A stretch of DNA of 33,586 nucleotides from Bacteroidetes bacterium GWA2_31_9b. GTDB lineage: Bacteria > Bacteroidota > Bacteroidia > Bacteroidales > UBA12077. A program made the position numbers and the translations under genes. The DNA is taken from the NCBI GenBank assembly GCA_001769005.1, contig MENE01000037.1, positions 1-33,586 of the forward strand, given 5' to 3'. Of this stretch, positions 11,491 through 29,723 are shown one piece after another (the first letter of the stretch is position 1; the number at the start of each line of letters is the position of its first letter). The notes below the pieces were generated by a model. It did no database searches, was not told the origin of the DNA, and was given only the letters and a program-made list of their open reading frames with translations.

Positions 11491-11895
11491 ATGAATATAA
11501 TAATTGTAGATGATAATAAATCTTTTAGGGCAGCATTAAAACATTTATTAGAAAAAAATAAAGATTACGAAATTATATGTGAAGCTGATAATGGTATACA
11601 AGCTTTGGAATTGCTCAATTCTTATACTCCTGAACTAGTATTAATGGATATTGAAATGCCGATAATGGATAGTATAAAAGCAATTAAACTGATGCTAACG
11701 GAAAATAATCAAATTAAATTTATTGCAATAACTGAGTATAGTGACAAAGTTTATTTAGATGAAATTATGGGAGCAGGATTCCATGCTTGTGTTTTAAAAT
11801 CGGATGTATTTGATGAAATAGATGCAATTATTGAAGCTGTTTGTAATGATAAATATACCTTTCCTAAAGGTATCATGTTAAATGACCCATTATAA
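11491..11895 (+). CDS. Single-domain (CheY-like) response regulator
   Basis: 134 aa with a receiver only: IVDDN, LVLMDIEMP, AITEY, VLKSD. No output domain. Confidence 0.8.
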   Translation: MNIIIVDDNKSFRAALKHLLEKNKDYEIICEADNGIQALELLNSYTPELVLMDIEMPIMDSIKAIKLMLTENNQIKFIAITEYSDKVYLDEIMGAGFHACVLKSDVFDEIDAIIEAVCNDKYTFPKGIMLNDPL

Positions 11896-11937
11896 TTAAT
11901 ATCAAAAGAATTAAAAAAAATTAAAGATGGAGATATT

Positions 11938-12435
11938 ATGAAAATGAAAAAAAACGAACCCCCAAATTTTAATCATGTTTTAACATATTTATCATTTGAG
12001 CTAAATAATGAAATATTTGCTGTAAATGTTGAAAATGTGATTAATATACTTGAAATGAAAAAGATTACTAGTATTCCAAAATCACCAGAATATTTTAAAG
12101 GGATAATAAACCTACGTGGGAAAGCCCTTCCTGTAGTAGATTTAAGAATTATTTTTGGAATAAATAATCTCAAATTTACAAATGATACATGCATTCTTGT
12201 TCTTCAAATAAAAGTTGAGGGAGAAGAAATACTGTTGGGTGCTATTGTTGACTGTGTTAAAGAAGTACTTGAATTAGAGCAAAATTATATTGAGCCAGTT
12301 CCTAGTATCGGTACAAAATATCATCCTGATTTCATTAATGGAATATGGAAAATGGATGAAAGATTTATCATGTTACTAGATCTAGATAATGTTATAAACC
12401 CAAAGGATATATTAATTGTTCAAAATGCAAGTTAA
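11938..12435 (+). CDS. cheW: Chemotaxis coupling protein CheW
   Basis: 165 aa. YLSFELNNEIFAVNVENVINILE ... IPKSPEYFKGIINLRGKALPVVDLRIIFG matches the CheW-like domain consensus. GGAG lies upstream of the ATG. Confidence 0.8.
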   Translation: MKMKKNEPPNFNHVLTYLSFELNNEIFAVNVENVINILEMKKITSIPKSPEYFKGIINLRGKALPVVDLRIIFGINNLKFTNDTCILVLQIKVEGEEILLGAIVDCVKEVLELEQNYIEPVPSIGTKYHPDFINGIWKMDERFIMLLDLDNVINPKDILIVQNAS

Positions 12436-12513
12436 GCATTTGATAATATGTAAATAACAAATTCAAAGAGTGGTATTAATAAACAGAAAAATTTACACAT
12501 AAAACATATAGTT

Positions 12514-14556
12514 ATGAATTGGAAGAATATTAAACTTGGAAAAAAATTGTCTATAGCTTTTGGAATAGTTATAGTAATTTTAATAATAGTAACAATTTGG
12601 TCTATAAAAGGGATAAATGAAATTGTAAGAAATTCAAAAGAAATTATTGAGGTTGATAAGCTCCTTGCTGATATTGAACAAAAGCACATTGACCATTTGA
12701 AATGGGCAAGTGAAGTTAATAAACTATTAACTGATAAAAATGCTAAGGAACTCAATGTTCAAACTGATTATCATTTGTGTGCTTTTGGTCAATGGTACTA
12801 TGGGAAAGGGAAAGAGAATGCGATAAAATTAATCCCAGAAATAGAAACATTATTAAATGAAATTGAGGAACCACACAAGCATCTTCATGAATCTGCTATT
12901 GAAATTTCAAAAGTATTTATACAATCCGATTTTAAAGTCGGTTCTAAAATTAGAGATGTTAAAAGTGAGCATCTTCTTTGGATGAATAATATTAAAGATG
13001 CTCTATTAACCAAAAGTAGAGAATTAAATGTTCAAACTGATTATCATGAATGTAGCTTGGGTAAATGGTTGGAAAGTGAAGAAATTCTTGAGATGAGAAG
13101 AAATAACCCAGATTTCAATGCTTTAATAACAAAGGTGGAAGAGCCTCATAAACATTTACATGAAAGTGCTATTCAAATTGAAAAATACATTAAAACGGGT
13201 GATTTTAATACTGCTAATAAATATTATACATCAAATACAAATAATTATGCTCACGAAACATTAGGTTTATTGGATGATGTTCTTAAATATCAGGATAACA
13301 ATATGAAAGGAATGGATCAAGCTAATAAAATATACAATACCAAAACTACGGTTGCATTGGAAAATGTTGGAACTCTTTTAAATAAGATAGTTGATAAAGC
13401 CAAAAAAGAAGTTGAAACAAATGAAGCTATTATGACTGAAGAATCAAATAAAACACGTCAAGGAGTTTTAATATTTAGTTTTATAGCAGTGTTAATTGCA
13501 ATTGTTTTTGCAATAGTAATTACTCGCGGTATAATAAACCCTATTCTTAAAGGAGTAAAATTTACAAAACTAATTTCTTCTGGAGATTTAACTGCACAAG
13601 TTGAAATTGATCAGGAGGATGAGATTGGTGAATTAGCATATGCTTTGCAATCAATGGCAAATAAATTAAAAAATATTGTAAATGAGATTATTTCAGGATC
13701 TGATAATATTGCTGCTGCCTCTGAGCAAATGAGTTCCACTTCACAAAATATGTCTCAAGGATCTTCCGAACAAGCATCATCTACAGAGGAAATATCATCA
13801 TCAATGGAACAAATGGCTTCAAATATTCAACAAAACAATGATAATGCTCAACAAACTGAAAAAATATCAGTATTAGCTGCTGGAAAAATTGAGAAAGTAG
13901 GAAATGCCTCAAAAGAAAGTCTGAAATCAATTCGAGAAATAGCAGAAAAAATATCAATTATTGGAGATATTGCTTTTCAAACCAATATTCTTGCATTGAA
14001 TGCTGCAGTTGAAGCTGCGCGTGCTGGAGAACATGGAAAAGGATTTGCTGTGGTGGCAACTGAAGTTAGAAGATTAGCTGAACACAGTAAAATTGCTGCT
14101 GAAGAGATTAATGTATTATCGAAATTTAGTGTTAATTTAACTGAAGAAGCAGGAAAAATGATAGAAGACTTAGTTCCTGAAATTCGAAAAACAGCAAATC
14201 TAGTTCAAGAAATTTCTTCTGCAAGTATGGAGCAAAGTAGTGGGGCTAATCAAGTTAATGAAGCTATTCAGCAATTAAGTCAGGTAACACAACAAAATGC
14301 AGCAGCAAGTGAAGAGATGGCTACTAGTGCTGAAGAATTATCTAGCCAGGCAGAGCAATTAAAAGAAATTGTTACTTTCTTTAAAATTGATAATTACCAA
14401 AGAGATATCACTCCAGAAACAGGTTTTAATAAAAAAATGAAAATAAAATCCAAGCTTTGGAAAAGCTCAAGTAAACAACCCCTAAAGGAGAAAGTTGGTG
14501 TAGATATCATATTGAATTCAAGTGATTTGGTAGATAGGGATTTTGAGAGTTATTAA
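12514..14556 (+). CDS. Methyl-accepting chemotaxis protein with an extracytoplasmic tandem CZB-like sensor
   Basis: TM1 at about aa 12-31 and TM2 at about aa 316-336. HAMP follows TM2. The invariant signalling hairpin [38 protein letters not shown] is present. Confidence 0.9.
12685..13161 (+). repeat. Intragenic tandem duplication encoding two CZB-like modules
   Basis: The DNA blocks aatgttcaaactgattatcat and gagga/gaagagcc-ca[ct]aa[ag]cat-t-catgaa-tgctatt recur about 270 nt apart. The peptides are HLKW...CAFGQW...HKHLH and HLLW...CSLGKW...HKHLH. Confidence 0.7.
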
Positions 14557-17962: not shown

Positions 17963-18646
17963 CTATTGAACATTAAAACAAAATCCAATACCTCGTATCG
18001 ACTTTATATTAATTGATTTGTCGTTTATTAAATACTTTCTTAATCTACTTATAAAAACATCCATACTCCTTCCGGAAAAATAATCATTACCTCCCCATAT
18101 TTCGTTTAAAATATCACTTCGTTTTATTACTTTGTTGGAGTTTTTAATAAAGTATTGTAATACAAGTGCTTCTTTTTCGGTGAGTTGTATTTTGTTTTCT
18201 TTGTAAATGAGTAAAAAGTTAGAAATATCAAATTTATATTCACCTATACAAATCGAATCATTTGTATTGATAATTTTTCTTTTTAAAATATTATTTATTC
18301 TAAGTATAAGCTCTTCTGGTTCAAATGGTTTGCATATATAATCATCGGCGCCAAGTTTAAGCCCTTTTATTCTATCCTCTATCATTATTCTAGCTGTAAG
18401 AAAAATAAAAGGTATACTATTATTGTTGATTAAAATATTTTCAGCGAGTGTAAATCCATCCATTTCTGGCATCATTATATCAAAAATACATAGATCAAAC
18501 TTGTTTTCCTTAAAAGCATTTAATCCAATTAATCCATCTCTACATAACGTTACTTCAAAATTATTTAAAACAAGATATTGTTTTAAAACGTTTCCAAGAT
18601 CAATATCATCTTCTACCAATAAGATGTTTTTTATAAACTTATCCAT
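17963..18646 (-). CDS. Response regulator, OmpR/PhoB winged-helix family
   Basis: 227 aa. Receiver motifs LLVEDD, LCIFDIMMPEMDG, FLTA, YICKPF. C-terminal LTEKEALVLQYF ... VFISRLRKYL ... IRGIGF matches a trans_reg_C-type domain. Confidence 0.85.
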   Translation of the reverse strand: MDKFIKNILLVEDDIDLGNVLKQYLVLNNFEVTLCRDGLIGLNAFKENKFDLCIFDIMMPEMDGFTLAENILINNNSIPFIFLTARIMIEDRIKGLKLGADDYICKPFEPEELILRINNILKRKIINTNDSICIGEYKFDISNFLLIYKENKIQLTEKEALVLQYFIKNSNKVIKRSDILNEIWGGNDYFSGRSMDVFISRLRKYLINDKSINIKSIRGIGFCFNVQ

Positions 18647-18731
18647 ATTAATAAATATTAATCCAAAATATATTTAGAAAAGATTTCTCTAAAATTAAGA
18701 AAGTTATTTAGAAGAAATTTAAAAAAGTATT

Positions 18732-20117
18732 TTAATTGTTTTGTAGTTTTATGTTTCTTTTTAATTTGAGTGTAAAAGTTGTACCAATGTTAATCTCGCT
18801 ATTAACTGAAATTTTCCATTTATGAGATTTAGTAATTAAATAAACATAGTATAATCCAAGGCCAGTTCCTTTTATCTTATGAATATTCCCTGTTGGTACT
18901 CTATAAAACTGTTTAAATAAATGTTTTTGATACTCTTTACTAATGCCTATGCCATTGTCTGATAAAATAATTTCAAAATACTTTTTACTCTCTAATGTTG
19001 TTATATTTAGTTCAATAATGTCTTTAGAATATTTAAATGCGTTATCTAGTAAGTTTGTAAGTATCATTTCAAAATAAAAAGGATCGGCAAGTATTTCTGG
19101 AGTTGAAATAAATAAACTTGTATTAATTGTAAAAGATTTCTGATGATTTCTTATCTTAAATTCATCAACAACCTTATTTATTAAATCATGTAAATTAATC
19201 TTTTTATAGTTTAATTGAATAATTCCATTTCTAAGAGCAGATAAATTTAATACATTATCTACCAGATTAATTAGTCTTCTAGATTGATTATCAATAGATT
19301 TTACCAGATTTAATAATTCTGTTTTTTGATTTAAAATGATTGGGTTTGATAATGTTCTTGATGCAATTGATATGGTTGTTATAGGTGTTTGAATTTCATG
19401 AGTTATATTATTTATAAAATCTGTTTTCATTTTATCATGTACTTCTTGTCTTTTAATTGTTTTTATTGTATAAATCACAATAATTATAAAAACAATAAGA
19501 ATAATGAAAGCACCCCAAATTACATTTTTTATACTTCTTAAATAATAATTCCTTAACGAACCATATTTTATATATAGATTAATTTGAAAATTGTAGTTAT
19601 TTCCATTAAAATATAAATAATTAGCAGGTAAAATATCAGTAATAATGCTGCTATCTCCAAATAAATATATAACTGATTCTTTTAATTTGTCATCATCTGC
19701 TATTGTTATTATTTTATTAGAACCATTAATATTGAACTTATTTAAGCTAATTAAGGTATTAAATGGAACATTAATTTTGTATGATAAAAAAGATTCTTTT
19801 AAATTTTCATTAATTTTTTTATAAACATTGAACGTATTTTTTAATGTATCAATCAATTTTTTTTTAGAATCTTCTTTAAGTTCACCATTTAAATCCATAC
19901 TATTCTTATCTTTTAGTAGGATGTCACATACTTGTTCTAACTTTTCATCATTAACCTTATATTTATAAAATTCAGAAGCACTTAAATAATCTGTTGAATA
20001 TTTAAATTTATTGCTTTGTAGCTGTAGTGTATTAAAAAGGAGGTATCCCAGTATTATAAATATCAAGATACAAGATAAAATAAGAAAGAAGATTGAAAGT
20101 TTAATTCTATTTATCAT
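18732..20117 (-). CDS. Sensor histidine kinase (two TM segments, ~165-aa extracytoplasmic loop)
   Basis: 461 aa. H-box FINNITHEIQTPIT, N-box LTNLLDNAFKYS, G-boxes DNGIGI and GTGLGLYY. It lies upstream of, and is co-oriented with, the OmpR-type regulator. Confidence 0.85.
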   Translation of the reverse strand: MINRIKLSIFFLILSCILIFIILGYLLFNTLQLQSNKFKYSTDYLSASEFYKYKVNDEKLEQVCDILLKDKNSMDLNGELKEDSKKKLIDTLKNTFNVYKKINENLKESFLSYKINVPFNTLISLNKFNINGSNKIITIADDDKLKESVIYLFGDSSIITDILPANYLYFNGNNYNFQINLYIKYGSLRNYYLRSIKNVIWGAFIILIVFIIIVIYTIKTIKRQEVHDKMKTDFINNITHEIQTPITTISIASRTLSNPIILNQKTELLNLVKSIDNQSRRLINLVDNVLNLSALRNGIIQLNYKKINLHDLINKVVDEFKIRNHQKSFTINTSLFISTPEILADPFYFEMILTNLLDNAFKYSKDIIELNITTLESKKYFEIILSDNGIGISKEYQKHLFKQFYRVPTGNIHKIKGTGLGLYYVYLITKSHKWKISVNSEINIGTTFTLKLKRNIKLQNN

Positions 20118-20230
20118 TATTATTATTTTTATTTTTTCTAAAATTAATAGAATTGTTAATTTAAAAAATAGATTAACTCTTCATTAACCTTTTATTAACA
20201 CATACCCAGTAAAGAAATAGTTATTTTCGT

Positions 20231-20264
20231 AAAATCAAATTTCATTAAAAATCAAATTTCATTA
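20231..20264. promoter_or_regulatory. Perfect 17-nt tandem direct repeat in the divergent HK / peptide-locus intergenic region
   Basis: aaaatcaaatttcatta occurs twice (20231-20247, 20248-20264), followed by a partial third copy. It ends 25 nt upstream of the ATG at 20290. The repeat is certain; its function as a regulator-binding site is inferred. Confidence 0.4.
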
Positions 20265-20289
20265 AAAATAAAATTAAGCAATAACTAAT

Positions 20290-20832
20290 ATGAAACTAAG
20301 TATATGGATCATTTTTTTTCTTGCAATGTTTTTAACAACATTAAAATCTTATAAAGTGTTATCTCAGAATCATATATGTGTACAAACAAATGGAAATATT
20401 AATGATGCTATTGATATTAACCTAAATTGGTTTAAGCAATTATCAGAAAATTATAATGAATCAACTTTTGTTGTATATTATGGTTTAGGAAGTCATTCCT
20501 ATCACTTTACAGCTTCAGACAATGATTTTGTGAAAGAAAATAGCGATTATTCAGATAATAATGATTATCAATTCGGTCAAGGTTCTGTTTTAATGGATAA
20601 TGGAAGAAAGCTTGATGTTAAATATTTATATAATAAAGAAAAATTTAAAGTTGAATTAGCTCGCTATTTAAAGAATGGAGAATTAGACACATCTTTTTTT
20701 AAAAACGGGAGAATAACAAAAACAGTTTATAAAAAAGACAAAAAGGGAAGTATGATCGTATTTAAATCAGATGAAAATTTGGTAATAGCCGGTTATACAG
20801 AATCAGACTCAACCTTTATTTATATTAAATAA
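20290..20832 (+). CDS. Hypothetical secreted protein
   Basis: 180 aa with an N-terminal signal peptide (IWIIFFLAMFLTTL). NGELDTSFFKNGRI resembles a single propeller-type repeat. Its 3' end is duplicated at 21200..21274. Confidence 0.55.
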   Translation: MKLSIWIIFFLAMFLTTLKSYKVLSQNHICVQTNGNINDAIDINLNWFKQLSENYNESTFVVYYGLGSHSYHFTASDNDFVKENSDYSDNNDYQFGQGSVLMDNGRKLDVKYLYNKEKFKVELARYLKNGELDTSFFKNGRITKTVYKKDKKGSMIVFKSDENLVIAGYTESDSTFIYIK

Positions 20833-20871
20833 CCAATATAAAAACAATCTATTTAACCAAAATCTAAATTT

Positions 20872-21045
20872 ATGTACGATCAAAGAAGCCACATTATTTG
20901 TGGCCCAGCTGCAGTTATAAATAAAGAACTAGCAATGTTAGCTTGTACTGAATATGCATGTCATTGTCAATGTAATCAAGGGAGCGGAAGTGGTGCTGGT
21001 GTTGAAGGTGGGCATGTTGTAATTTTCAAGCCTTCGTTGTTATAG
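20872..21045 (+). CDS. Putative RiPP precursor peptide A1 (57 aa), absent from the ORF track
   Basis: Hand translation: MYDQRSHIICGPAAVINKELAMLACTEYACHCQCNQGSGSGAGVEGGHVVIFKPSLL. It shares the leader-like motif, the CxCQC core, the Gly-rich linker and the hydrophobic tail with A2 and A3. Confidence 0.7.
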   Translation: MYDQRSHIICGPAAVINKELAMLACTEYACHCQCNQGSGSGAGVEGGHVVIFKPSLL

Positions 21046-21199
21046 GTAAAGATTTTTGATTCATTACTTTTCAATCGAAATAGCTATAATTAATTCTAAA
21101 AATAGATTAAAGAGAGAATTGTTAACCGGTTGAAAAGTTTATCATCATAAAAAATAAAACCAATTTGGTTTATTAAGAAACTCGAAAGTAAGTTTGATT

Positions 21200-21274
21200 A
21201 TGTTTAAATCAGATGAAAATTTGATTCTAGCCGGCTATGCAGAATCATGCTTCACTTTTGTGTACATAAAGTAG
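21200..21274 (+). pseudogene. Duplicated 3' fragment of the 20290..20832 gene
   Basis: It encodes MFKSDENLILAGYAESCFTFVYIK*, compared with VFKSDENLVIAGYTESDSTFIYIK* at the end of 20290..20832. Like the parent, it is followed about 40 nt later by a precursor gene. Confidence 0.6.
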
Positions 21275-21318
21275 CTATTGGGTTGCTTTATATTAATTAT
21301 TAATCTTAATTTAAAATC

Positions 21319-21489
21319 ATGAAAGAACAAAAAAAACATTTTATTTGCGGTCCAACAGCGGTTGTAAATAAAGAATTAGCAATGATGGCAGCATCAAGTT
21401 GTGCTTGTGCTTGCCAGTGTGGTTCACAAGTTGGAACTGGTAATGGTGGTGGATCAGGAGGTTCATTATTAGATTTACTTTCTTTTTAA
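21319..21489 (+). CDS. Putative RiPP precursor peptide A2 (56 aa), absent from the ORF track
   Basis: Hand translation: MKEQKKHFICGPTAVVNKELAMMAASSCACACQCGSQVGTGNGGGSGGSLLDLLSF. Confidence 0.75.
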   Translation: MKEQKKHFICGPTAVVNKELAMMAASSCACACQCGSQVGTGNGGGSGGSLLDLLSF

Positions 21490-21522
21490 TTAATTATTAT
21501 TAAACATTAAAAAAACAAAAAA

Positions 21523-21711
21523 ATGAAATCAGTAAAACATGTAATTAGTGGACCATCTTCAGTGGTTCAAAAAGAACTGGCTACTTTAGCAGCAGCTGGT
21601 TGTGGATGTCAATGTGGTTGCGGAAGTGCATCAGGTAGTGGTGGTGGAACTGGCGGCGGTGGCGGCGGCGGTGGCGTTGGCGATTTAATAAGCTTGCTTT
21701 CTTTATTATAA
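21523..21711 (+). CDS. Putative RiPP precursor peptide A3 (62 aa)
   Basis: ORF track: MKSVKHVISGPSSVVQKELATLAAAGCGCQCGCGSASGSGGGTGGGGGGGGVGDLISLLSLL. It starts 33 nt after A2 and has the same architecture as A1 and A2. Confidence 0.8.
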   Translation: MKSVKHVISGPSSVVQKELATLAAAGCGCQCGCGSASGSGGGTGGGGGGGGVGDLISLLSLL

Positions 21712-21725
21712 GAAAACAATAAATG

Positions 21726-21764
21726 GAGATGTATGCATTAATTTATTTAATGCATACAGATCTC
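21726..21764 (+). terminator. Stem-loop after the precursor genes (possible leaky terminator or attenuator)
   Basis: 12-bp perfect stem tgtatgcattaa / ttaatgcataca with a 5-nt loop, extendable with one bulge (gagat...agatctc). The downstream T-tract is weak. Confidence 0.45.
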
Positions 21765-21842
21765 TCTTTAATTATTAAGCGGGTATTTTGTAATATTTTA
21801 TTTGTTAAAGTTCAAAATATCAATTTTTCATATTAAGCTTAA

Positions 21843-22001
21843 AAAACAAAAAAGAATACACATAATCATATTATTTGTGGATTATCAGCAGTTGTCAAAA
21901 AAGCCAGTTTAGATACTATAGGATGCACTTTTCCATGCAGTTGTGGAATTGAATTAGGCGCTGAATATTCATATGGGGGTGGAGTAGCAATTACAAATTA
22001 A
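21843..22001 (+). pseudogene. Decayed fourth precursor-like copy (no start codon)
   Basis: The in-frame translation after the stop at 21840 is KTKKNTHNHIICGLSAVVKKASLDTIGCTFPCSCGIELGAEYSYGGGVAITN*. It retains H.IICG..AV and a C.....C.C segment. The position aligned to the A3 ATG reads aaaaaacaaaaaaGAA, and the KELA motif, Gly linker and Leu-rich tail are lost. Confidence 0.45.
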
Positions 22002-22038
22002 TTTTAAAATCGCTTTTAATCTTTTAAGATAAATGAGA

Positions 22039-22075
22039 TTTTGTATGAATCAAATATTGCTTGATGCATACAAAA
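22039..22075 (+). terminator. Second stem-loop related to the one at 21726
   Basis: tttgtatgaatcaa / ttgatgcatacaaa forms 14 bp with one mismatch and a 7-nt loop. It shares the gtatg.at...atgcatac core with the 21726 hairpin. Confidence 0.4.
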
Positions 22076-22151
22076 ACTAAATAGAAATAATAAAAATTTG
22101 GATTTCATAATTTTTGATTATCATTTAAAAATACTTACGTTAAACTTAACC

Positions 22152-23471
22152 ATGGATACACTAAAAAATTTTGAGAAAAGTTTTCTTATTGAAGAAATTA
22201 ACGAAAATAAATATATAATATATAATGTTGATAGACATATACCGATTATTGTTGATAAAACAGGGAAAAAGTTTTTTGATATTATTTTAAATAATAGAGA
22301 TTTAGAATCATGTAAAAAGAGCCTTTTGAAAAATGAATTCGATGATTTTGTACTATTTTTAAAAGAAATTGGCAATTTACAAGTATTGGATACATCACCT
22401 TCAGAAACGATTAAACCAAAAAACAACCCGCCAAAAACAGCTTATTTACACCTTACTTATAAATGTAATTTAAATTGTAATTATTGTTACAATAAAGATG
22501 TACGAAATAAATTTGTTGATCTCCCATTTGAAAAATGGAAAAATATAATTGACAAATTATTACCTACAACAAATTATTTTATTTTAACAGGTGGAGAACC
22601 ATTTCTATTTAAAGATCTAAAAAACATAATAAACTATATTCATTCCTATAATTCTGAATATCAAGTTGAGATATTATCAAACGGAATGATTAACTTTTCG
22701 GAATATTCAGATTCAAATGAAGTTTTTAACAATATTCATAGAATTACATTTAGTTGCGATAATTTTAAATCAAATAATCAGGTAAGAAAAGGATTTGAAA
22801 TAGAAGAATTTAAAAAGAATCTGGAATGGATTATTAAAAACGGATATGCAGAAAAAGTTGGTTTAAGTTCAGTTTATTATAAAGAAAATCTTGAGGGAAC
22901 TATTGAAGTTCAACAATATTGCAAAAGTCACTGCATGCAACATAGAAGAGTTCTAGTTATTCCTAATAATCGTGATGAAATCAATATTATGCCATCTTTA
23001 GAATCATTTCTAGAATCTCTAGGTTCTAACGAAGCAATTTATGACTTAACTACTTTTTTTAAGCGATTAAATTGTGGAGCTGGGGTTGGACTTATTAGTA
23101 TCGACCCTGAAGGAAATTGTTACCCTTGCCAGAATTTACATTATGATAAATTTAATTGTGGTAATATATTAAATAAATCATACAAAGAAATTCTTGATTC
23201 AGAAGTAATTAATCTTTTTAGATCGGATTTAATTGTTGAAAATATTTCTACCTGTAACGAATGTAAACTTAGATATATTTGTGGAGGAGGTTGCAGAGCT
23301 GCAAGCTACAGATTGGAAGGAAAAATTGATGCTTTTCCAGAAGTTATGTGTTCATATTACAAAAGCTTAGCTAAACACAAACTTATAAATGGTGTCTTTT
23401 TTACTCCCAGTGAATTATTAAATCGTAAAGATTCTATAAATAAATTAATAGAAAAAGAATTTATTATTTAA
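22152..23471 (+). CDS. Radical SAM / SPASM-domain peptide maturase with an RRE-like N-terminal domain
   Basis: CNLNCNYC (CxxxCxxC) at 22464-22487. GGEPFL SAM-binding motif. C-terminal cysteine pattern C326-x12-G-x4-C344 ... C386-x2-C389-x5-C395-x3-C399 ... C418 (ORF-track numbering). About 90 aa lie before the rSAM core. The ATG at 22152 is preferred over the track's TTG at 22098. Confidence 0.85.
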   Translation: MDTLKNFEKSFLIEEINENKYIIYNVDRHIPIIVDKTGKKFFDIILNNRDLESCKKSLLKNEFDDFVLFLKEIGNLQVLDTSPSETIKPKNNPPKTAYLHLTYKCNLNCNYCYNKDVRNKFVDLPFEKWKNIIDKLLPTTNYFILTGGEPFLFKDLKNIINYIHSYNSEYQVEILSNGMINFSEYSDSNEVFNNIHRITFSCDNFKSNNQVRKGFEIEEFKKNLEWIIKNGYAEKVGLSSVYYKENLEGTIEVQQYCKSHCMQHRRVLVIPNNRDEINIMPSLESFLESLGSNEAIYDLTTFFKRLNCGAGVGLISIDPEGNCYPCQNLHYDKFNCGNILNKSYKEILDSEVINLFRSDLIVENISTCNECKLRYICGGGCRAASYRLEGKIDAFPEVMCSYYKSLAKHKLINGVFFTPSELLNRKDSINKLIEKEFII

Positions 23472-23520
23472 TATTTTATAAAAAAAGATAAATGTTCGGG
23501 TTACTTTAATATATCAGATT

Positions 23521-25302
23521 ATGAACTTTAGTTTTAAAAATTCTTCATACAACATTGGCAAAGATAAATTTAACTGCTTGAAGCAGTATTTAATTAAGCC
23601 TAAAAAATATGCTATATGGGGAGGTGTTGCAATGATATTTAATATCCTTTTAATGCTGCCAACACCTCTTATTACAATGTATCTGATAGATCAGATTTTA
23701 CCTCAGAAGGATTTTCCGATGTTAAGTTTGGTTAGTGGATTGCTGGTAATATTTATCTTATTTAAATTTATTAGTTCATACTTTCAGAATTTATATTTTG
23801 TTAAGTTTAATGAGCTCGTAATATTTCATATTCAAATTGATTTAAACGAAAAAATACAATCTTTTACTGCCAGATATAGACAAAAACTTCAAACAGGTTA
23901 TTTAATGTCAAGAATTTCAAATGATCCCAATCGACTACATGGATTATTTGCTACTATTTTATTAACTGCTGTAAGCGATATTTTAACTTTTATTGTAGGA
24001 TTGATTATTATTTTCTTTATTCATTGGAAATTAGCTTTAGCGTCTCTTTTTATTTTGCCTTTTTTTATTTATGCAATTAATTATTTTAGTAAAAAAATCA
24101 GAGATACTGCAGAAGTAACTTATGAAGAAAGTGCACAAGTTTACAAAAAAATGCAAGAATCAATATCTTTAATTGATACATTCTTAATGTTTAATGCTCA
24201 AAAGTACGATGCAATAAAACTTGTTCAAAGAATGAGAAAATCGGTAGTTAGTTATATTCACTTATCTGTTTTGTCGAGTCTTTCAATGAATATAGCCGCT
24301 CTTATAAGTGGTATTGGACCTGTAGTTGTAATATGGTATGGAATGTATGAGATTATGAATGGGAATTTAACTTTAGGAGAATTAATTGCATTTAATGCTT
24401 TTATTGGATATCTCTTTGGTCCTGCAAACAGATTAATGAATGCAAATTCTAGTATTCAACAGTCACTCGCAGCATGGGATAGAATATATGAAATACTCAA
24501 TGAAAAGAAAAATGTACTTAAAAAATCTAAAAAAAATGTAAGAAATAAGATTCTAGGCCATGTTTCTTTCCAGAATGTAGCTTTTTCGTACGATGATCAA
24601 CCAGTATTAAAAAATATTAATTTAGAAATTGCTCCAAAAAGTATATTGGGAATTGTTGGTGAAAGTGGCTGCGGAAAGAGTACTCTGGTTAGCCTAATAC
24701 CTGTTTTAAATGAAAAAAATGAAGGTGAAATATTTATTGATGATTTACAAGTAGGTGATTATAACGTAAATACCTTAAGAGATCAAATTGCTTATGTAAA
24801 TCAGGAACCATTACTCTTCAATAATACAATACTAAATAATATTAAACTTGGTAATAAAAATGCGAGTCGTGATGAAATTATTCATGCTGCACATTTAGCC
24901 AAAATTAGTGATTTTATAGAATCTTTACCTGATGGATATGATTCAATAGTTGATGAAAGAGGATTAAATATGTCTGTAGGACAAAAACAACGAATTGCTA
25001 TTGCAAGGGCAATACTTAAGAAACCATCAATTTTAATTTTGGATGAATTCACATCAAACCTAGATTCAGAGTCGGAGTATGATTTGTTCGAAACACTTAA
25101 AGATTTCATGAAAGAACGAACTACAATTATTGTTGCTCACAGATTATCAACACTTAAATATGCAAATAAAATTGTTGTTCTTGATAAAGGGTGTATTGTA
25201 GAAGAAGGTAGCCATCAAGATCTTATGAAATTGGAAGGTTCATACAGCAACCTTTTTAATAAACAACACGCTAATGGCGAAATAAAAGTCCTTGTAAATT
25301 AA
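23521..25302 (+). CDS. ABC exporter, fused TMD-NBD half-transporter (no C39 peptidase domain)
   Basis: 593 aa. Six predicted TM segments begin around aa 30. Walker A GESGCGKST, signature MSVGQKQRIAIARA, Walker B ILILDEFTS, H-loop VAHRLST. Confidence 0.9.
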   Translation: MNFSFKNSSYNIGKDKFNCLKQYLIKPKKYAIWGGVAMIFNILLMLPTPLITMYLIDQILPQKDFPMLSLVSGLLVIFILFKFISSYFQNLYFVKFNELVIFHIQIDLNEKIQSFTARYRQKLQTGYLMSRISNDPNRLHGLFATILLTAVSDILTFIVGLIIIFFIHWKLALASLFILPFFIYAINYFSKKIRDTAEVTYEESAQVYKKMQESISLIDTFLMFNAQKYDAIKLVQRMRKSVVSYIHLSVLSSLSMNIAALISGIGPVVVIWYGMYEIMNGNLTLGELIAFNAFIGYLFGPANRLMNANSSIQQSLAAWDRIYEILNEKKNVLKKSKKNVRNKILGHVSFQNVAFSYDDQPVLKNINLEIAPKSILGIVGESGCGKSTLVSLIPVLNEKNEGEIFIDDLQVGDYNVNTLRDQIAYVNQEPLLFNNTILNNIKLGNKNASRDEIIHAAHLAKISDFIESLPDGYDSIVDERGLNMSVGQKQRIAIARAILKKPSILILDEFTSNLDSESEYDLFETLKDFMKERTTIIVAHRLSTLKYANKIVVLDKGCIVEEGSHQDLMKLEGSYSNLFNKQHANGEIKVLVN

Positions 25303-25357
25303 TAGTTCATTTTTCACTTAAATTGATTTAAATAATTATAACTCAAATTATGTAATT

Positions 25358-27751
25358 ATGAAATTCTCTTTGAAATTTTTATTAAGAAGATTATTTAGAA
25401 ATAAACTAACATCATTAATTAATATTTTTGGTTTAACAATTGGTATTGTTTGTTCATTTTTTATTTTAATATACATATCATATGAATTAAGCTTTGATAA
25501 GTTTCATTCAAATTATAAGCATATTTATAGAATAACAGAAGAAAGAACACTAACAGAGCAACCAAGAACTTTAGCAGTTACTTGCCCTCCAATTGCAGGA
25601 ATAATATCAAACGAGTTTCCTGAAATTAAAACTGTTCGCATACTGCCATATGAGGCCAATATATTTTTAGAAAATGAAATAAATTTTAAAGAAAACAAAT
25701 TCTATTTTACTGAAAATTCAATTTTTAATATTTTTGATTTCCACTTTATTGAAGGAAATAGTAAAGAAGCTCTTTCCAACCCTAATTCAATAGTTGTGTC
25801 AGAAAGTATAGCAAAAAAATATTTTGGCAATGAAAAAGCAATTGGTAGAATAATAAAACTCAATAATAAGGTTGATTTCGTTGTTACAGGAGTTGTTAAA
25901 ATTTTTTCAGGTAATTCGCATATTAAACTGGAAGTTTTAGCATCCTTAAATACCTTCTTTAACGATAAAAAACTTATGGAGTCGTGGTGGAAAACAGATT
26001 TTTATACTTATGTTTTGATCCCAGAAGCCAGGGATAATCAAAATTTCAAAGAAAGCATCCCCAACATTATCAACAATTATATGCCTGATGCAAAAGGACA
26101 GCGAATATTTACTCTTCAGCCATTGAGGAAAATACACCTGTATTCAAATTTGGAAAATGAATTGGAGAAAAACAGCGATATAAAGTATATCTATATATTT
26201 GTTTTTATTGCCTTACTTATTATTGTTATAGTATGTTTTAATTTCATGAATTTATCCACAGCAACTTTTATGAAAGCATCAAAAGAAGTTGGTTTAAGAA
26301 AGATTTTTGGAGCAAAAAAAAGAAATTTGTCACTTTTATATTTTGGAGAATCTATATTAATCTCTTTTTTCTCTTTACTAATAGCAATAATTATTGTTGA
26401 AACAACAATTCATTTTTTTAATTCATATTTTCCTGGTATATATGAATTTTACTTTCTAAATAAATTAAAACTCTATTCGTTTTTTTTCTTTATCACTTTT
26501 TTAATAGGAATATTTGCTGGAAGTTACCCTGCAATTTATTTGCCATCTCTAAAACCCGTAGATGCACTAAAAAAATTAAATAGAATTGGAAAAAGTAATA
26601 TTATAACCAGGAATGTTCTTATTGTTTGCCAATTTGTAATTGCCTGTGTAATGATTTCTTCAACATTTATTATTTATAAACAGTCACAATATATAAAAAA
26701 GCTGGATTTAGGTTTTGATAAGCAAAACCTATTAGTTCTTAATATCCCAAAGGAATTAAATTCAAAATATGAGCTTTATAAAGATTTACTAAAAGGAAAC
26801 AATAAAGTTATTGATGTATGTATTTCAGGCGGGGTTCCAGGTGTGCCGTTAACATCAGAATTTCCATATCAATTAGATAATGTTAACTATAAAGGTAGTT
26901 TGCCTAACATATTAACATTTATGATCGATTATGATTTTATTCAGACCTATGGTCTTCAAATAATTAAAGGTCGTGGATACGAAAAAAATAGTGAATTGGA
27001 CAAAGATAAATCATTTATATTAAATCAAAAGGCTGTAAATACTTTTGGTTGGGATGATCCTATTGGTAAATCGTTTACAATTCATCAATTTAATGGGAAA
27101 GAAATGGAGACAAAAAAAGGAACTGTTATTGGAGTAGTTAAGGATTTTAATTTTAAGTCTCTTAATACCTCAATTGAACCTCTTGTTTTAGAGATAGCAC
27201 CATCTGATATGTTTTATAACTCACTATCAATAAAGTATAAAAATGGAGCAGATCAGGAAGTTTTAAGTATTTCCAAAAAACAATTGAAAGAAATGGGAAT
27301 AGACGAACCAATTGAATATTATTTTCTAAGCGATAAGTTACAGTCAGATATGAAGAAACAAGAAAATCTAAAAAGCTTGATGTATTTGTTTACAATCTTA
27401 ATTGTAATATTAGCTTGCCTCGGATTATTTGGTTTAGTATCTTTTAGTCTTAATCAAAGATCTAAAGAAATAGGTATAAGGAAAGTTCATGGTAGTAATA
27501 CCTTTAATATTGTTTTTCTATTTTATAAACAATACTTGAAATTAATAATCTATTCAAACATAATTGCTATTCCTTTTACCTTTTTTATAATAAATAAATG
27601 GATGCAATATTTTGCTTATAAAACAACAGTTAATTGGACAGTATTTATAGTTTCTTTTATAATGCTCTTTATATTGACATTTATAACTGTCACTGTTATT
27701 ACCATTCGAAATGCTAGAATAAACCCAGCAATTACTTTAAAATACGAATAA
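25358..27751 (+). CDS. ABC transporter permease, double FtsX / MacB-like family
   Basis: 797 aa. It has the same architecture and the same termini (FRNK..SLINIFGLTIG ... NPAITLKYE) as 3885..6284. No MacB-type ATPase gene lies adjacent. Confidence 0.85.
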   Translation: MKFSLKFLLRRLFRNKLTSLINIFGLTIGIVCSFFILIYISYELSFDKFHSNYKHIYRITEERTLTEQPRTLAVTCPPIAGIISNEFPEIKTVRILPYEANIFLENEINFKENKFYFTENSIFNIFDFHFIEGNSKEALSNPNSIVVSESIAKKYFGNEKAIGRIIKLNNKVDFVVTGVVKIFSGNSHIKLEVLASLNTFFNDKKLMESWWKTDFYTYVLIPEARDNQNFKESIPNIINNYMPDAKGQRIFTLQPLRKIHLYSNLENELEKNSDIKYIYIFVFIALLIIVIVCFNFMNLSTATFMKASKEVGLRKIFGAKKRNLSLLYFGESILISFFSLLIAIIIVETTIHFFNSYFPGIYEFYFLNKLKLYSFFFFITFLIGIFAGSYPAIYLPSLKPVDALKKLNRIGKSNIITRNVLIVCQFVIACVMISSTFIIYKQSQYIKKLDLGFDKQNLLVLNIPKELNSKYELYKDLLKGNNKVIDVCISGGVPGVPLTSEFPYQLDNVNYKGSLPNILTFMIDYDFIQTYGLQIIKGRGYEKNSELDKDKSFILNQKAVNTFGWDDPIGKSFTIHQFNGKEMETKKGTVIGVVKDFNFKSLNTSIEPLVLEIAPSDMFYNSLSIKYKNGADQEVLSISKKQLKEMGIDEPIEYYFLSDKLQSDMKKQENLKSLMYLFTILIVILACLGLFGLVSFSLNQRSKEIGIRKVHGSNTFNIVFLFYKQYLKLIIYSNIIAIPFTFFIINKWMQYFAYKTTVNWTVFIVSFIMLFILTFITVTVITIRNARINPAITLKYE

Positions 27752-27770
27752 TACTTTAAACTTATAAAAA

Positions 27771-29723
27771 ATGCAAAACTTAAAAAGACTAAAACCATAT
27801 AAATCTGAAAGACCTTTAAGAACAATTAATAAAATAAGAAATATTCTTGGTGAACATGATATTTTTACAATTGAAAGCCATATAATAGATGATGCCGATT
27901 TTCATTCCTGTCATGTAACTTTTGACAATAGCACTTTAGCTTTACTTGGAATAGCAACCAATGGAAAAGGTTTGAGTAGAGAATATTCTTTAGCAAGCGG
28001 ATATGCAGAATTCCTCGAAAGAATCCAAAATAATGCAAAAATTCATTTGCAGAATTATCAGGCTACCAAACGCTATTTGGAAAACGAAAATATGAATAAT
28101 GCTTTTCATAGAAAATTAAAACAAGAAGATTTGGTTCAGGATTTTAGATTCGCTCCTGACGAAAAATTTTTAAACATAGAAAAAGCGGTAAATGAGCAAC
28201 CAGATATTTATCAAAAAATTTTAAACTTGAATGATAATAAAGAAATCATTCAATTTATTGAAGAAGAACTATGTACCAATGAGATTGAAACTGTTCCTTT
28301 TTATGAGGTAAATAGTAATGAAATTAAAGAATTACCAATTCGATTAATTCAGAATGTTTGTGGAACAAATGGGATGTGTTCTGGTAACAACAAGATTGAA
28401 GCAATTTTACAAGGTATATCTGAAATTTTTGAACGATATGCAATAAGAGAAATATATTTAAAAGAGCTTTCACTTCCAACAATCCCACTTGAAGTATTTA
28501 TGGGAAATGAAATTTATGAGAGAATAAAAAAATTAGAATTAGAGAAAAGTTATACTTTCATTATCAAAGATTGTTCTTTAGGAATAGGTTTGCCTGTTTT
28601 AGGTGCACTTATTATTGATCATTCAAATAGCACATATACACTACATTTAGGTGCTGACCCAAGCCCAATAACTGCACTTGAAAGATGTTTTACTGAAGTT
28701 TATCAAGGGGGAAAAAATGCACGATTTAAGCCTGTTCATTACAATACTAAAGATATTTTCAGCTTTTTAGGAGCTAATAATCAAAAATCCCGAGAATGGA
28801 ATAAGTTAAATCAAATGTATAAAACCATTAAACAAGGTACGGGGTATTGGCCTGATTCAATATTTCTAAACAAAGAATCATATTCTTTTAATGGATTTGA
28901 AAACCCGGTATCTTATAGTAATGAAAAAGATATGAATTATTTTCTAAATATTATTGAAAGAAACAATTACAAACTTTTTATTAGAGATCATTCATTTTTG
29001 GGTTTTGACTCTTTTTACATTTATATTCCTGAATTAAGCCATTTATATAATATTGCAGATAATAATGCCTGCAAAATTGATTATAAACTAAAGCAGAAGT
29101 TTACTATTCTTGCTAACCTAAATAAAGCAAATGAAAATGATATTAAACAGGTTGTTGAACTAATTGAAGAAGATTACAATCATCCAAGATTCAGTGAAAA
29201 AAATATTAGACAGTACTTTTTGGCAAATCTAAATTTTGAATTTGTTGACATGTCACCTGAACTTTTCTTAGTGATGTTAAATTACAGAATTCAAAATTTT
29301 GATAAAGCATTTTATTTTTTAAATCAACACCTGATTAATTGTAAATCTGAAAATAATATTAATTATGCTTATTTATATGCTATATCAGAATATTTAAAAT
29401 TAAAAATTGAGAAAAACTCTAACGAAGATATTTTTAATAGATTGAGAATCCAATTTACTGAAAATATGGCTAATGATGTAATAAATGATATGGATAAAAA
29501 TGAAGAAATATTTAAATATCATAGACTTCCTTCATGTTTCGATTGCGATAATTGTCCAGTTTCTAATGAATGTAAATTCTTTGATCTTTTAAAGTGTTAT
29601 AAACCAATAAAAACAGCCTATAAGCTAAATGTTATTGATCAGAATGACTTGTCGAAATTATTTTATAACACGAATGATATTAAAACAAATAATTTATTCA
29701 AAGCAGAGTTTTCATCTAATTAA
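27771..29723 (+). CDS. YcaO-domain protein, stand-alone, with an extended C-terminal region
   Basis: 650 aa. YcaO signatures: NGKGLSREYSLASGYAEFLERIQN, GTNGMCSGNNKIEAILQGISEIFERYA, LHLGADPSPITALERCFTEVYQ. The C-terminal ~250 aa is helical-repeat-like and carries a Cys cluster. It starts 19 nt after the permease stop. Confidence 0.8.
   Translation: MQNLKRLKPYKSERPLRTINKIRNILGEHDIFTIESHIIDDADFHSCHVTFDNSTLALLGIATNGKGLSREYSLASGYAEFLERIQNNAKIHLQNYQATKRYLENENMNNAFHRKLKQEDLVQDFRFAPDEKFLNIEKAVNEQPDIYQKILNLNDNKEIIQFIEEELCTNEIETVPFYEVNSNEIKELPIRLIQNVCGTNGMCSGNNKIEAILQGISEIFERYAIREIYLKELSLPTIPLEVFMGNEIYERIKKLELEKSYTFIIKDCSLGIGLPVLGALIIDHSNSTYTLHLGADPSPITALERCFTEVYQGGKNARFKPVHYNTKDIFSFLGANNQKSREWNKLNQMYKTIKQGTGYWPDSIFLNKESYSFNGFENPVSYSNEKDMNYFLNIIERNNYKLFIRDHSFLGFDSFYIYIPELSHLYNIADNNACKIDYKLKQKFTILANLNKANENDIKQVVELIEEDYNHPRFSEKNIRQYFLANLNFEFVDMSPELFLVMLNYRIQNFDKAFYFLNQHLINCKSENNINYAYLYAISEYLKLKIEKNSNEDIFNRLRIQFTENMANDVINDMDKNEEIFKYHRLPSCFDCDNCPVSNECKFFDLLKCYKPIKTAYKLNVIDQNDLSKLFYNTNDIKTNNLFKAEFSSN

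Follow-up and report, generated by a model that had tools for sequence, protein, structure and literature searches.

Positions 1-33,586 of contig MENE01000037.1 of Bacteroidetes bacterium GWA2_31_9b (the whole stretch is called here the window) carry on the + strand three short Cys- and Gly-rich genes, A1, A2 and A3, followed by genes for a radical S-adenosylmethionine (rSAM) enzyme, an exporter, a permease and a YcaO protein. A1-A3 probably encode the precursors of a sactipeptide-like peptide made by the ribosome and modified after translation (RiPP), in which the rSAM enzyme would tie Cys to Gly residues in a hairpin ladder, as part of a four-step pathway of recognition, cross-linking, export and action of a hydrophobic tail. 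A first-pass annotation of the same DNA had regarded the three peptides as RiPP precursors and substrates of the enzymes nearby, a view supported by the finding of homologous peptides beside rSAM genes in other metagenomes. The cross-linking enzyme would be the adjacent rSAM protein, which features a RiPP recognition element (RRE) and a SPASM domain, and not YcaO. Most likely the system represents a Gram-negative relative, rare and not annotated, of a kind of sactipeptide which has until now been demonstrated in Streptomyces only. Sactipeptides are known from Firmicutes in nearly all cases, and only recent genome mining has brought to light those of the Cys-Gly hairpin type (StsA and BlaA).

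A1 (20872-21045, 57 aa), A2 (21319-21489, 56 aa) and A3 (21523-21711, 62 aa) are intact open reading frames (ORFs) of the + strand, and their translations are identical to those given in the first-pass annotation. A1 and A2, shorter than 60 aa, fall below the default length of ORF lists and had been missed by the ORF track, as was remarked at the time. All three peptides contain the motif H-x-I-[CS]-G-P-x-x-V-x-[NQ]-K-E-L-A-x-[LM]-A, four Cys after the motif, C-x-C-Q-C among them, a Gly-rich stretch and a Leu-rich tail, exactly as described earlier. None of the three matches a Pfam or NCBIfam family at a meaningful score. The degenerate codon pattern G-P...[KH]-[ED]-[LI]...C-x-C-x-C is found three times in the window, and never in 100 shuffles. 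Among paralogues and orthologues synonymous differences are near saturation (pS 0.44-0.86), nonsynonymous differences are fewer (pN 0.21-0.40), and dN/dS, where computable, ranges from 0.08 to 0.38. In five other assemblies of a near-identical strain, from groundwater and sediment metagenomes, the region differs by 0-4 substitutions and no indels. A1-A3 evolve as coding sequence and are real genes.

The residues which do not vary in an alignment of 10 family sequences are, in A2 numbering, C30, C32, C34, G39, G41 and G43, plus one Gly of [CS]-G-P. The resulting pattern, C-x-C-x-C-x4-G-x-G-x-G, is the core motif of StsA, with identical spacing. According to PMC10288494, StsA of Streptomyces sparsogenes has the core motif CxCxCx4GxGxG, and is converted by the rSAM/SPASM enzyme StsB into a peptide with three nested bridges from Cys sulfur to Gly α-carbon (sactionines), C2-G15, C4-G13 and C6-G11. 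The same paper cites mass loss, iodoacetamide labelling, NaBD4 desulfurisation with deuterium and Cys/Gly variants as evidence for the bridges, states that all Cys are consumed in the modification, and assigns two bridges to the related BlaA.

The register of Cys and Gly was analyzed in 27 intact family members. Counted from the last Cys, positions +5, +7, +9 and +11 are each occupied by Gly in 23-24 of the 27 peptides, even offsets in 6-13 only. In 22/27 peptides no donor Cys lacks a Gly partner at the StsA spacing; within-segment shuffling, repeated 2000 times, gave 1.8 such peptides on average and never more than 7. These numbers are not probabilities, the sequences being related; the segment is also rich in Gly. 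Five members have the register displaced by one residue; in 27/27 the pairing is complete at some loop length between 3 and 7. Despite the kinship of the sequences, the period-2 pattern appears plain on both strands of the putative hairpin.

The Gly/Ser/Thr stretch had been interpreted as a flexible linker, a role at odds with the excess of Gly at odd offsets. Because its alternating Gly, in register, correspond to the acceptor half of the StsA motif, the stretch is most likely the acceptor strand of a hairpin, held by three bridges in A1 and four in A2 and A3. By analogy with StsA/StsB, the Cys of the run would each be bonded to one Gly, at its α-carbon, the pairs being nested and the innermost enclosing a loop of four residues. 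The predicted bridges are C34-G39, C32-G41 and C30-G43 in A1, the same three plus C28-G45 in A2, and C33-G38, C31-G40, C29-G42 and C27-G44 in A3. The numbers of Cys and Gly co-vary. A1 has three donors in the run, and Tyr at position 28 and Glu at position 45 where a fourth pair would stand; four pairs are complete in A2 and in A3, and the peptide of cluster L023 has five Cys and at least five Gly in register. A1 also has two Cys, C10 and C25, outside of the alternating run. Positions between the Cys of the run vary, and may be A, G, S, Q, H, T, N, L or F.

The enzyme predicted to form the bridges is a 439-aa protein encoded at 22152-23471 (+), matching Pfam Radical_SAM and SPASM, and the precursor genes lie 450-1300 nt upstream of its gene. 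The AlphaFold model of the protein (pLDDT 90.3) features an N-terminal domain of three strands and three helices (residues 11-75) of the RRE type, ahead of the rSAM barrel and of SPASM. The best fold match in the PDB is CteB, over the full length (TM 0.65-0.69), and CteB is also the best sequence match among solved structures. An rSAM core, a SPASM domain, an RRE-like domain and adjoining Cys-containing precursors, the general hallmarks of sactipeptide and ranthipeptide maturases, are thus found together. Six positions close to the catalytic site, defined in PMC10288494, were read from a sequence alignment to CteB. These are Y113, T146, L175, S201, Q327 and N328 in the window enzyme; Y, T, I, S, K and L in StsB, representative of group 1 hairpin sactisynthases; F, F, T, S, H and Q in CteB. 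The first four agree with StsB or are conservative changes, and conservation among 46 homologues reaches 90% or more at Y113, T146, S201 and Q327. The proximity residues lean towards a hairpin sactisynthase, and are not decisive.

The first-pass annotation had also considered the four Cys as a metal-binding site. In a broader form of this proposal, the Cys run would stay reduced and bind metal, as in metallothioneins, chalkophores or Fe-S proteins, or the rSAM enzyme would set thioethers at non-α positions, as in ranthipeptides, or cross-link residues other than Gly. The close spacing of the four Cys is in keeping with this, as is the similarity of the enzyme to CteB, its best structural match, and to ranthipeptide and SCIFF maturase models, on which it also scores (65 bits on TIGR03974, cut-off 425). 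Yet metal binding leaves the co-conserved, alternating Gly unexplained. Since Gly is the other invariant residue and has no side chain, a thioether must sit at its Cα; residues between the Cys vary; StsA, which has the same motif, uses up all its Cys; and a peptide simply binding metal would not be expected to be inherited strictly together with an rSAM enzyme. On these grounds the proposal is improbable, and Cys-Gly cross-linking remains the preferred explanation.

The peptides belong to a family which is real but rare, and is annotated in neither Pfam nor NCBIfam. A word-indexed protein search with A1-A3 retrieved the window's own peptides only. A search with the rSAM enzyme yielded about 60 clusters of homologues, 28-61% identical to the query, several being named Bacteroidales by their sources, and family peptides were found by reading the neighbourhoods of these genes. 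In every context examined (L008/L009, L010-12, L013-16, L019/20, L021/22, L023, L025 and L026) a homologous short peptide is encoded just upstream of the rSAM/SPASM homologue. Two peptides are encoded in L008/L009, both leaderless as in the window; those of the remaining contexts have a double-glycine (GG) leader. The association of similar short ORFs with orthologous enzyme genes, raised by the first-pass annotation, therefore recurs on independent contigs as far as the rSAM gene is concerned. Profile searches of a 5.8-billion-protein set and exhaustive hidden Markov model searches of 1.84 billion representatives returned 18 clusters (50% identity) at E ≤ 0.001, all made up of short peptides of the same design; the exhaustive search used full-length sequences, and the leader columns, when checked, were not profile positions. 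A genome scan with the rSAM protein hit only two loci (L001 and L002), both encoding unrelated radical-SAM proteins. A degenerate DNA pattern retrieved from metagenome contigs only lineages already found (L016, L018) and a chance match on a high-GC contig (L017). In the literature searched, no paper describing CxCxC...GxGxG peptides of Bacteroidota was found.

Leaderless and GG-type peptides differ in the region preceding the core. Only 5-6 residues precede the conserved segment in the window peptides, which have no GG leader. In Bacteroidales relatives the homologous segment ([FL]-S-G-x-x-A-V-x-E/H-...) is found downstream of a canonical GG leader. Presence of the leader co-varies with the type of exporter. 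The window exporter, encoded at 23521-25302 (+), has transmembrane and ATPase domains (Pfam ABC_membrane and ABC_tran only), and lacks the C39 peptidase domain, as its match to the bacteriocin_ABC model begins at profile position 129. GG-leader relatives are associated with ATP-binding cassette (ABC) transporters carrying Peptidase_C39. With neither a GG leader on the window peptides nor a C39 domain on the transporter, the conserved segment is not the export leader, and is probably the recognition sequence for the fused RRE. The conserved N-terminus and the variable Cys-rich region had been equated with the standard leader/core layout of RiPPs. The segment is plausible as a leader-like element for enzyme recognition, not as an export leader, as it follows the GG leader in the relatives.

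The first step of the pathway would accordingly consist in binding of H-x-I-[CS]-G-P-x-x-V-x-x-K-E-L-A-x-L-A by the RRE-like domain of the 22152-23471 enzyme. After cross-linking, the gene order suggests that the peptide would leave the cell through the C39-less ABC transporter, possibly with help from an FtsX-type permease; no GG leader would be removed, because the window peptides have none. The Leu-rich C-terminus, lying outside of the ladder, might in a last and speculative step make the product membrane-active or prone to self-association, a role which is a guess.

The hydrophobic tail is found in the leaderless clade and in one clade of GG-type peptides (L010, L013, L023). Most other family members have no tail, and end right after the Gly run. 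Considered earlier a conserved feature of the peptides, the tail is in fact confined to one part of the family. It is an optional, clade-specific addition not needed for the rSAM step, since most members outside of the two clades do without it.

Four GG-type clusters encode, beside the rSAM gene, a protein of 403-433 aa with an HExxH motif (L010, 9284-10546; L013, 8841-10142; L021, 6817-8028; L023, 6221-7507). The protein has a hydrophobic N-terminus, similar to that of a lipoprotein or to a secretion signal, and a conserved HE[SLC][WY]H, matches no Pfam or NCBIfam family, and has no counterpart in the window. It could be an extracytoplasmic metallopeptidase trimming the exported peptide. The possibility that this partner is a pseudo-rSAM protein was rejected, the protein being an HExxH lipoprotein instead.

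Several observations weigh against the assignment to hairpin sactipeptides, in addition to the shifted register of five members and the relatedness of the sequences used in the register statistic. On the NF045558 model (StsA_sacti_RiPP, cut-off 42) A1 scores 13.8 bits only (E 0.043; residues 27-43 aligned to model positions 19-35), P0128 scores 9 bits, and A2 and A3 have no match at E up to 10. The best NCBIfam family for the enzyme is StsB (NF045574), but at 85.6 bits, far from the cut-off of 625. Peptides and enzyme therefore lie, by score, outside of the curated StsA/StsB families. CbpB (76.8 bits), WgkB (76.5 bits) and also DynA, MftC and SCIFF maturases score almost as well as StsB, and for this reason the reaction cannot be deduced from homology of the enzyme alone. 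At proximity positions 5 and 6 the window enzyme has Q and N, StsB K and L. Lastly, the window cluster encodes no evident protease for removal of the recognition segment.

The stand-alone YcaO protein (27771-29723, +, 650 aa; Pfam YcaO, 3.8e-43) is of the E. coli YcaO / Bacteroidales rSAM-associated type. Gly-Cys and Gly-Ser dipeptides next to a YcaO gene had suggested heterocyclisation on the microcin B17 paradigm. According to this hypothesis YcaO would make thiazol(in)es and oxazol(in)es out of Cys and Ser residues flanking Gly, the Gly stretch being part of the azole core or a linker. The YcaO gene is in the same gene string, starting 19 nt after the permease, and the Cys are flanked by Gly, Ala or Ser. 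Yet seven homologous cluster types (L010, L014/15, L019/20, L021/22, L023, L025, L026) lack YcaO and keep the same Cys/Gly motif. The protein scores 42.7 bits on TIGR03604, the SagD model for cyclodehydratases of thiazole/oxazole-modified microcins (TOMMs), against a cut-off of 219; its best NCBIfam matches are E. coli-type YcaO models, and E. coli YcaO (4q84) is its best solved relative. Neither an E1-like/Ocin-ThiF partner nor a flavin mononucleotide (FMN) dehydrogenase was detected in Pfam and NCBIfam scans of the cluster proteins. Furthermore, ItfB, the only Bacteroidales rSAM-associated YcaO characterised, forms a C-terminal backbone amidine, not azoles, at the last two residues of a peptide ending Ile-Thr-Phe (PMC11002830, PMC10352776). 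The relation between the window YcaO and ItfB is indirect, as it is known here only through the YcaO of an itf-like cluster in L013. Absence of YcaO elsewhere, the sub-cut-off SagD score, the E. coli-type relatives and the ItfB precedent make azole formation on the Cys run unlikely. The hypothesis also leaves the period-2 Gly register unexplained, and as a whole is very improbable.

YcaO may add a further backbone modification to peptides cross-linked by the rSAM enzyme, without being the enzyme which defines the family. In a dual modification, restricted to the leaderless clade, formation of the Cys-Gly ladder would be followed by action of YcaO on the backbone of the tail, to give an amidine or the product of another ATP-dependent amide activation. 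The YcaO gene is co-directional and tightly spaced with the other cluster genes, and its product is 33% identical over 636 residues, that is over the full length, to the YcaO of the L013 itf-like cluster (peptide, rSAM, TonB-type outer-membrane protein, YcaO). A2 ends ...LLSF and L008a ...YFKF, ends comparable to the Ile-Thr-Phe of the ItfB substrate. However, A1 and A3 end Leu-Leu, not Phe, tails are also found in GG-type clusters devoid of YcaO (L010, L023, L014/15), and all other leaderless-clade contigs are too short to show conservation of YcaO. Dual modification is a possible, though doubtful, scenario. At the same tentative level, the leaderless clade might make a hybrid product of a kind not described so far, in which peptides with four nested sactionines and a tail modified by YcaO are exported without leader cleavage, the full-length 56-62 residue peptide being the mature, membrane-active molecule.

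The window system most likely works like StsA/StsB, and is distinct in the RRE fusion, number of bridges, recognition segment and optional tail, export genes and host group. StsA/StsB(/StsC) and BlaA/BlaB (PMC10288494; NF045558, NF045574) share with it the core motif spacing and an adjoining rSAM/SPASM maturase. The RRE is fused to the enzyme in the window, whereas StsC is a separate protein. Donor/acceptor pairs are usually four (range 3-5) in the window family, three in StsA and two in BlaA. Compared via the model, the [CS]-G-P...K-E-L-A segment and the hydrophobic tail fall outside of the 17 positions, out of 38, to which A1 aligns. Export genes differ, and YcaO is an additional neighbour. 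The window host is a low-GC environmental bacterium with relatives named Bacteroidales, the StsA host an actinomycete.

CteB/CteA (SCIFF, thermocellin; PDB 5WGG/5WHY) have in common with the window system the RRE-rSAM-SPASM architecture, over the full length, and a Cys-rich precursor. CteB makes a Cys-to-Thr Cγ link, however, and differs from the window enzyme at five of the six proximity residues, and an alternating run of Gly acceptors is missing from SCIFF peptides. Most of the peptides related to those of the window have a GG leader and sit in Bacteroidales clusters combining an rSAM enzyme with a C39-type peptidase-containing ABC transporter (PCAT) (PMC10352776). These clusters also hold a TonB-type outer-membrane protein (L019/20, L025, L026), an AprE/HlyD-like fusion protein (L010, L021) and a TolC-type outer-membrane efflux protein (L021). 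The GG-Bacteroidales system (TIGR04148/TIGR04149/TIGR04150) needs a GG leader, a maturase and a pseudo-rSAM partner, whereas the window peptides lack the leader; they have no match to TIGR04149 at E up to 10, and TIGR04148 is not among the best 25 families for the window enzyme. The window YcaO resembles that of an itf-like cluster, and in the itf cluster of Bacteroides thetaiotaomicron (ItfA/B/D/E/F) ItfD joins Trp to Ile by a C-C link, on a different peptide. With microcin B17 and other TOMMs the window has in common a YcaO gene close to a peptide rich in Gly, Cys and Ser; its YcaO is of another subtype, has no partner or dehydrogenase found alongside, and is not conserved with the peptide family.

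Should the assignment be correct, Cys-Gly hairpin chemistry would reach environmental bacteria of low GC content, and Bacteroidales from the gut, the mouth and the environment, with ladders of up to five nested bridges. One modified module would be used with or without a GG export leader, a choice matched by presence or absence of the C39 domain on the transporter. Positions of the cross-links are predicted concretely for each peptide.

The DNA encoding H-x-I-C-G-P-x-x-V is repeated four times in the window. The fourth copy, A4 (21843-22001, +), lies within the range covered by the first-pass annotation and was spotted by the repeat search. It has no ATG, GTG or TTG start after the preceding stop (21840), GP is changed to GL, and the Gly register is lost, with just C-x-C and one Gly in register left. 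A4 is probably a decayed copy, and is read as a pseudogene because start codon and most of the Cys/Gly pattern are missing and GP has changed.

The gene directly upstream of A1 (20290-20832, +) encodes a 180-aa protein with a hydrophobic N-terminus which, by inspection, resembles a signal peptide. No significant Pfam or NCBIfam family was found for this protein, delta-60/DUF5122 matches being far below cut-off, and relatedness to DUF3244 was considered and rejected for lack of similarity. A 42%-identical homologue is encoded directly upstream of the leaderless peptide P0134 in L024, so that the pairing of the 180-aa protein with a leaderless peptide is conserved in a second lineage. A remnant of the 3' end of the 180-aa ORF (21185-21273, +) was detected by direct repeats just before A2; the ORF at 21194-21274 translates to MIMFKSDENLILAGYAESCFTFVYIK, resembling the C-terminus of the 180-aa protein. 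Two direct repeats, D2 (20743-20831 / 21185-21273, 76%, spacing 442 nt) and D3 (20853-20942 / 21300-21389, 74%, spacing 447 nt), span this region. The 180-aa ORF 3' end and A1/A2 repeat with the same period of about 445 nt; hence the array grew by tandem duplication of a unit made up by the upstream gene end and a precursor, giving the A1 and A2 units.

A stem-loop is found at 21725-21765 (+), directly 3' of the A3 stop (-21.8 kcal/mol, z = -4.1; 0/200 shuffles fold as well), and a terminator-like scan matched 21730-21758, with 12 pairs. Structural genes and enzyme genes are often separated by partial terminators, and the placement of the stem-loop makes it a candidate for such a function. An inverted repeat at 22036-22078, with 18-nt arms 89% complementary and a 7-nt spacer, lies between A4 and the rSAM start codon, and gives a spurious Rfam miRNA match on the - strand. 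The Rfam scan of 20000-22300 returned nothing meaningful, and a scan for sigma-70 promoters found no excess over shuffles.

Enzyme and transporter genes from 22152 to 29723 are on the same strand, separated by gaps of 19-55 nt. A duplicated FtsX/MacB-type permease of the ADOP family (DarB-like, at low score, by family scans) is encoded at 25358-27751 (+), 55 nt after the exporter, and, judging by its position, may take part in export or immunity. Another permease of this duplicated FtsX/MacB type, of 799 aa and with the same domain layout, is encoded at 3885-6284 (-); existence of this paralogue makes membership of the cluster permease in the peptide system insecure. In the C-terminus of the window YcaO a Cys-rich stretch, SCFDCDNCPVSNECKFFDLLKC (29520-29600), missing from the L013 YcaO at the aligned positions, might hold a metal or an Fe-S cluster.

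The genes at 17963-20117 (-), divergent from the peptide cluster, encode a two-component system, made up by an OmpR-type response regulator and a histidine kinase (HisKA/HATPase), which may regulate the cluster. The divergent intergenic region, between the start of the histidine kinase (20117, -) and the 180-aa ORF (20290), contains the perfect tandem 17-nt repeat AAAATCAAATTTCATTA, present twice (20231-20264), which could be a response-regulator site controlling the cluster. Genes for CheY-like, CheW and methyl-accepting chemotaxis proteins are located at 11491-14556, and the GC content of the genome is about 28%; the host is read as a motile groundwater bacterium.

Some features of the related clusters deserve mention. 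Small DUF3244 proteins precede the precursor in L013 (6707-7084), L014 (2600-2953), L015 (7161-7514) and L026 (8189-8560), at the position taken in the window by the unrelated 180-aa protein, and a tetratricopeptide repeat protein of about 550 aa is encoded further upstream in the GG-type clusters carrying DUF3244. The itf-like module of L013 (533-6254), made up by a 52-aa GG-leader peptide with L-S-G-P directly after the GG site, a PapB-like rSAM, a TonB-type outer-membrane protein and a 624-aa YcaO, is 1.3 kb upstream of the StsA-like cluster, and is separate and strain-specific, being absent at the same place in L014 and L015. Class I lanthipeptide genes are found within a few kb of StsA-like clusters in two contigs of Bacteroidales type, L021 (12624-17263) and L023 (378-3150), with LanB, LanC-like and intervening IS66 transposase genes in the former, a LanC-like gene and an ORF faintly matching Lant_leader_dom in the latter.

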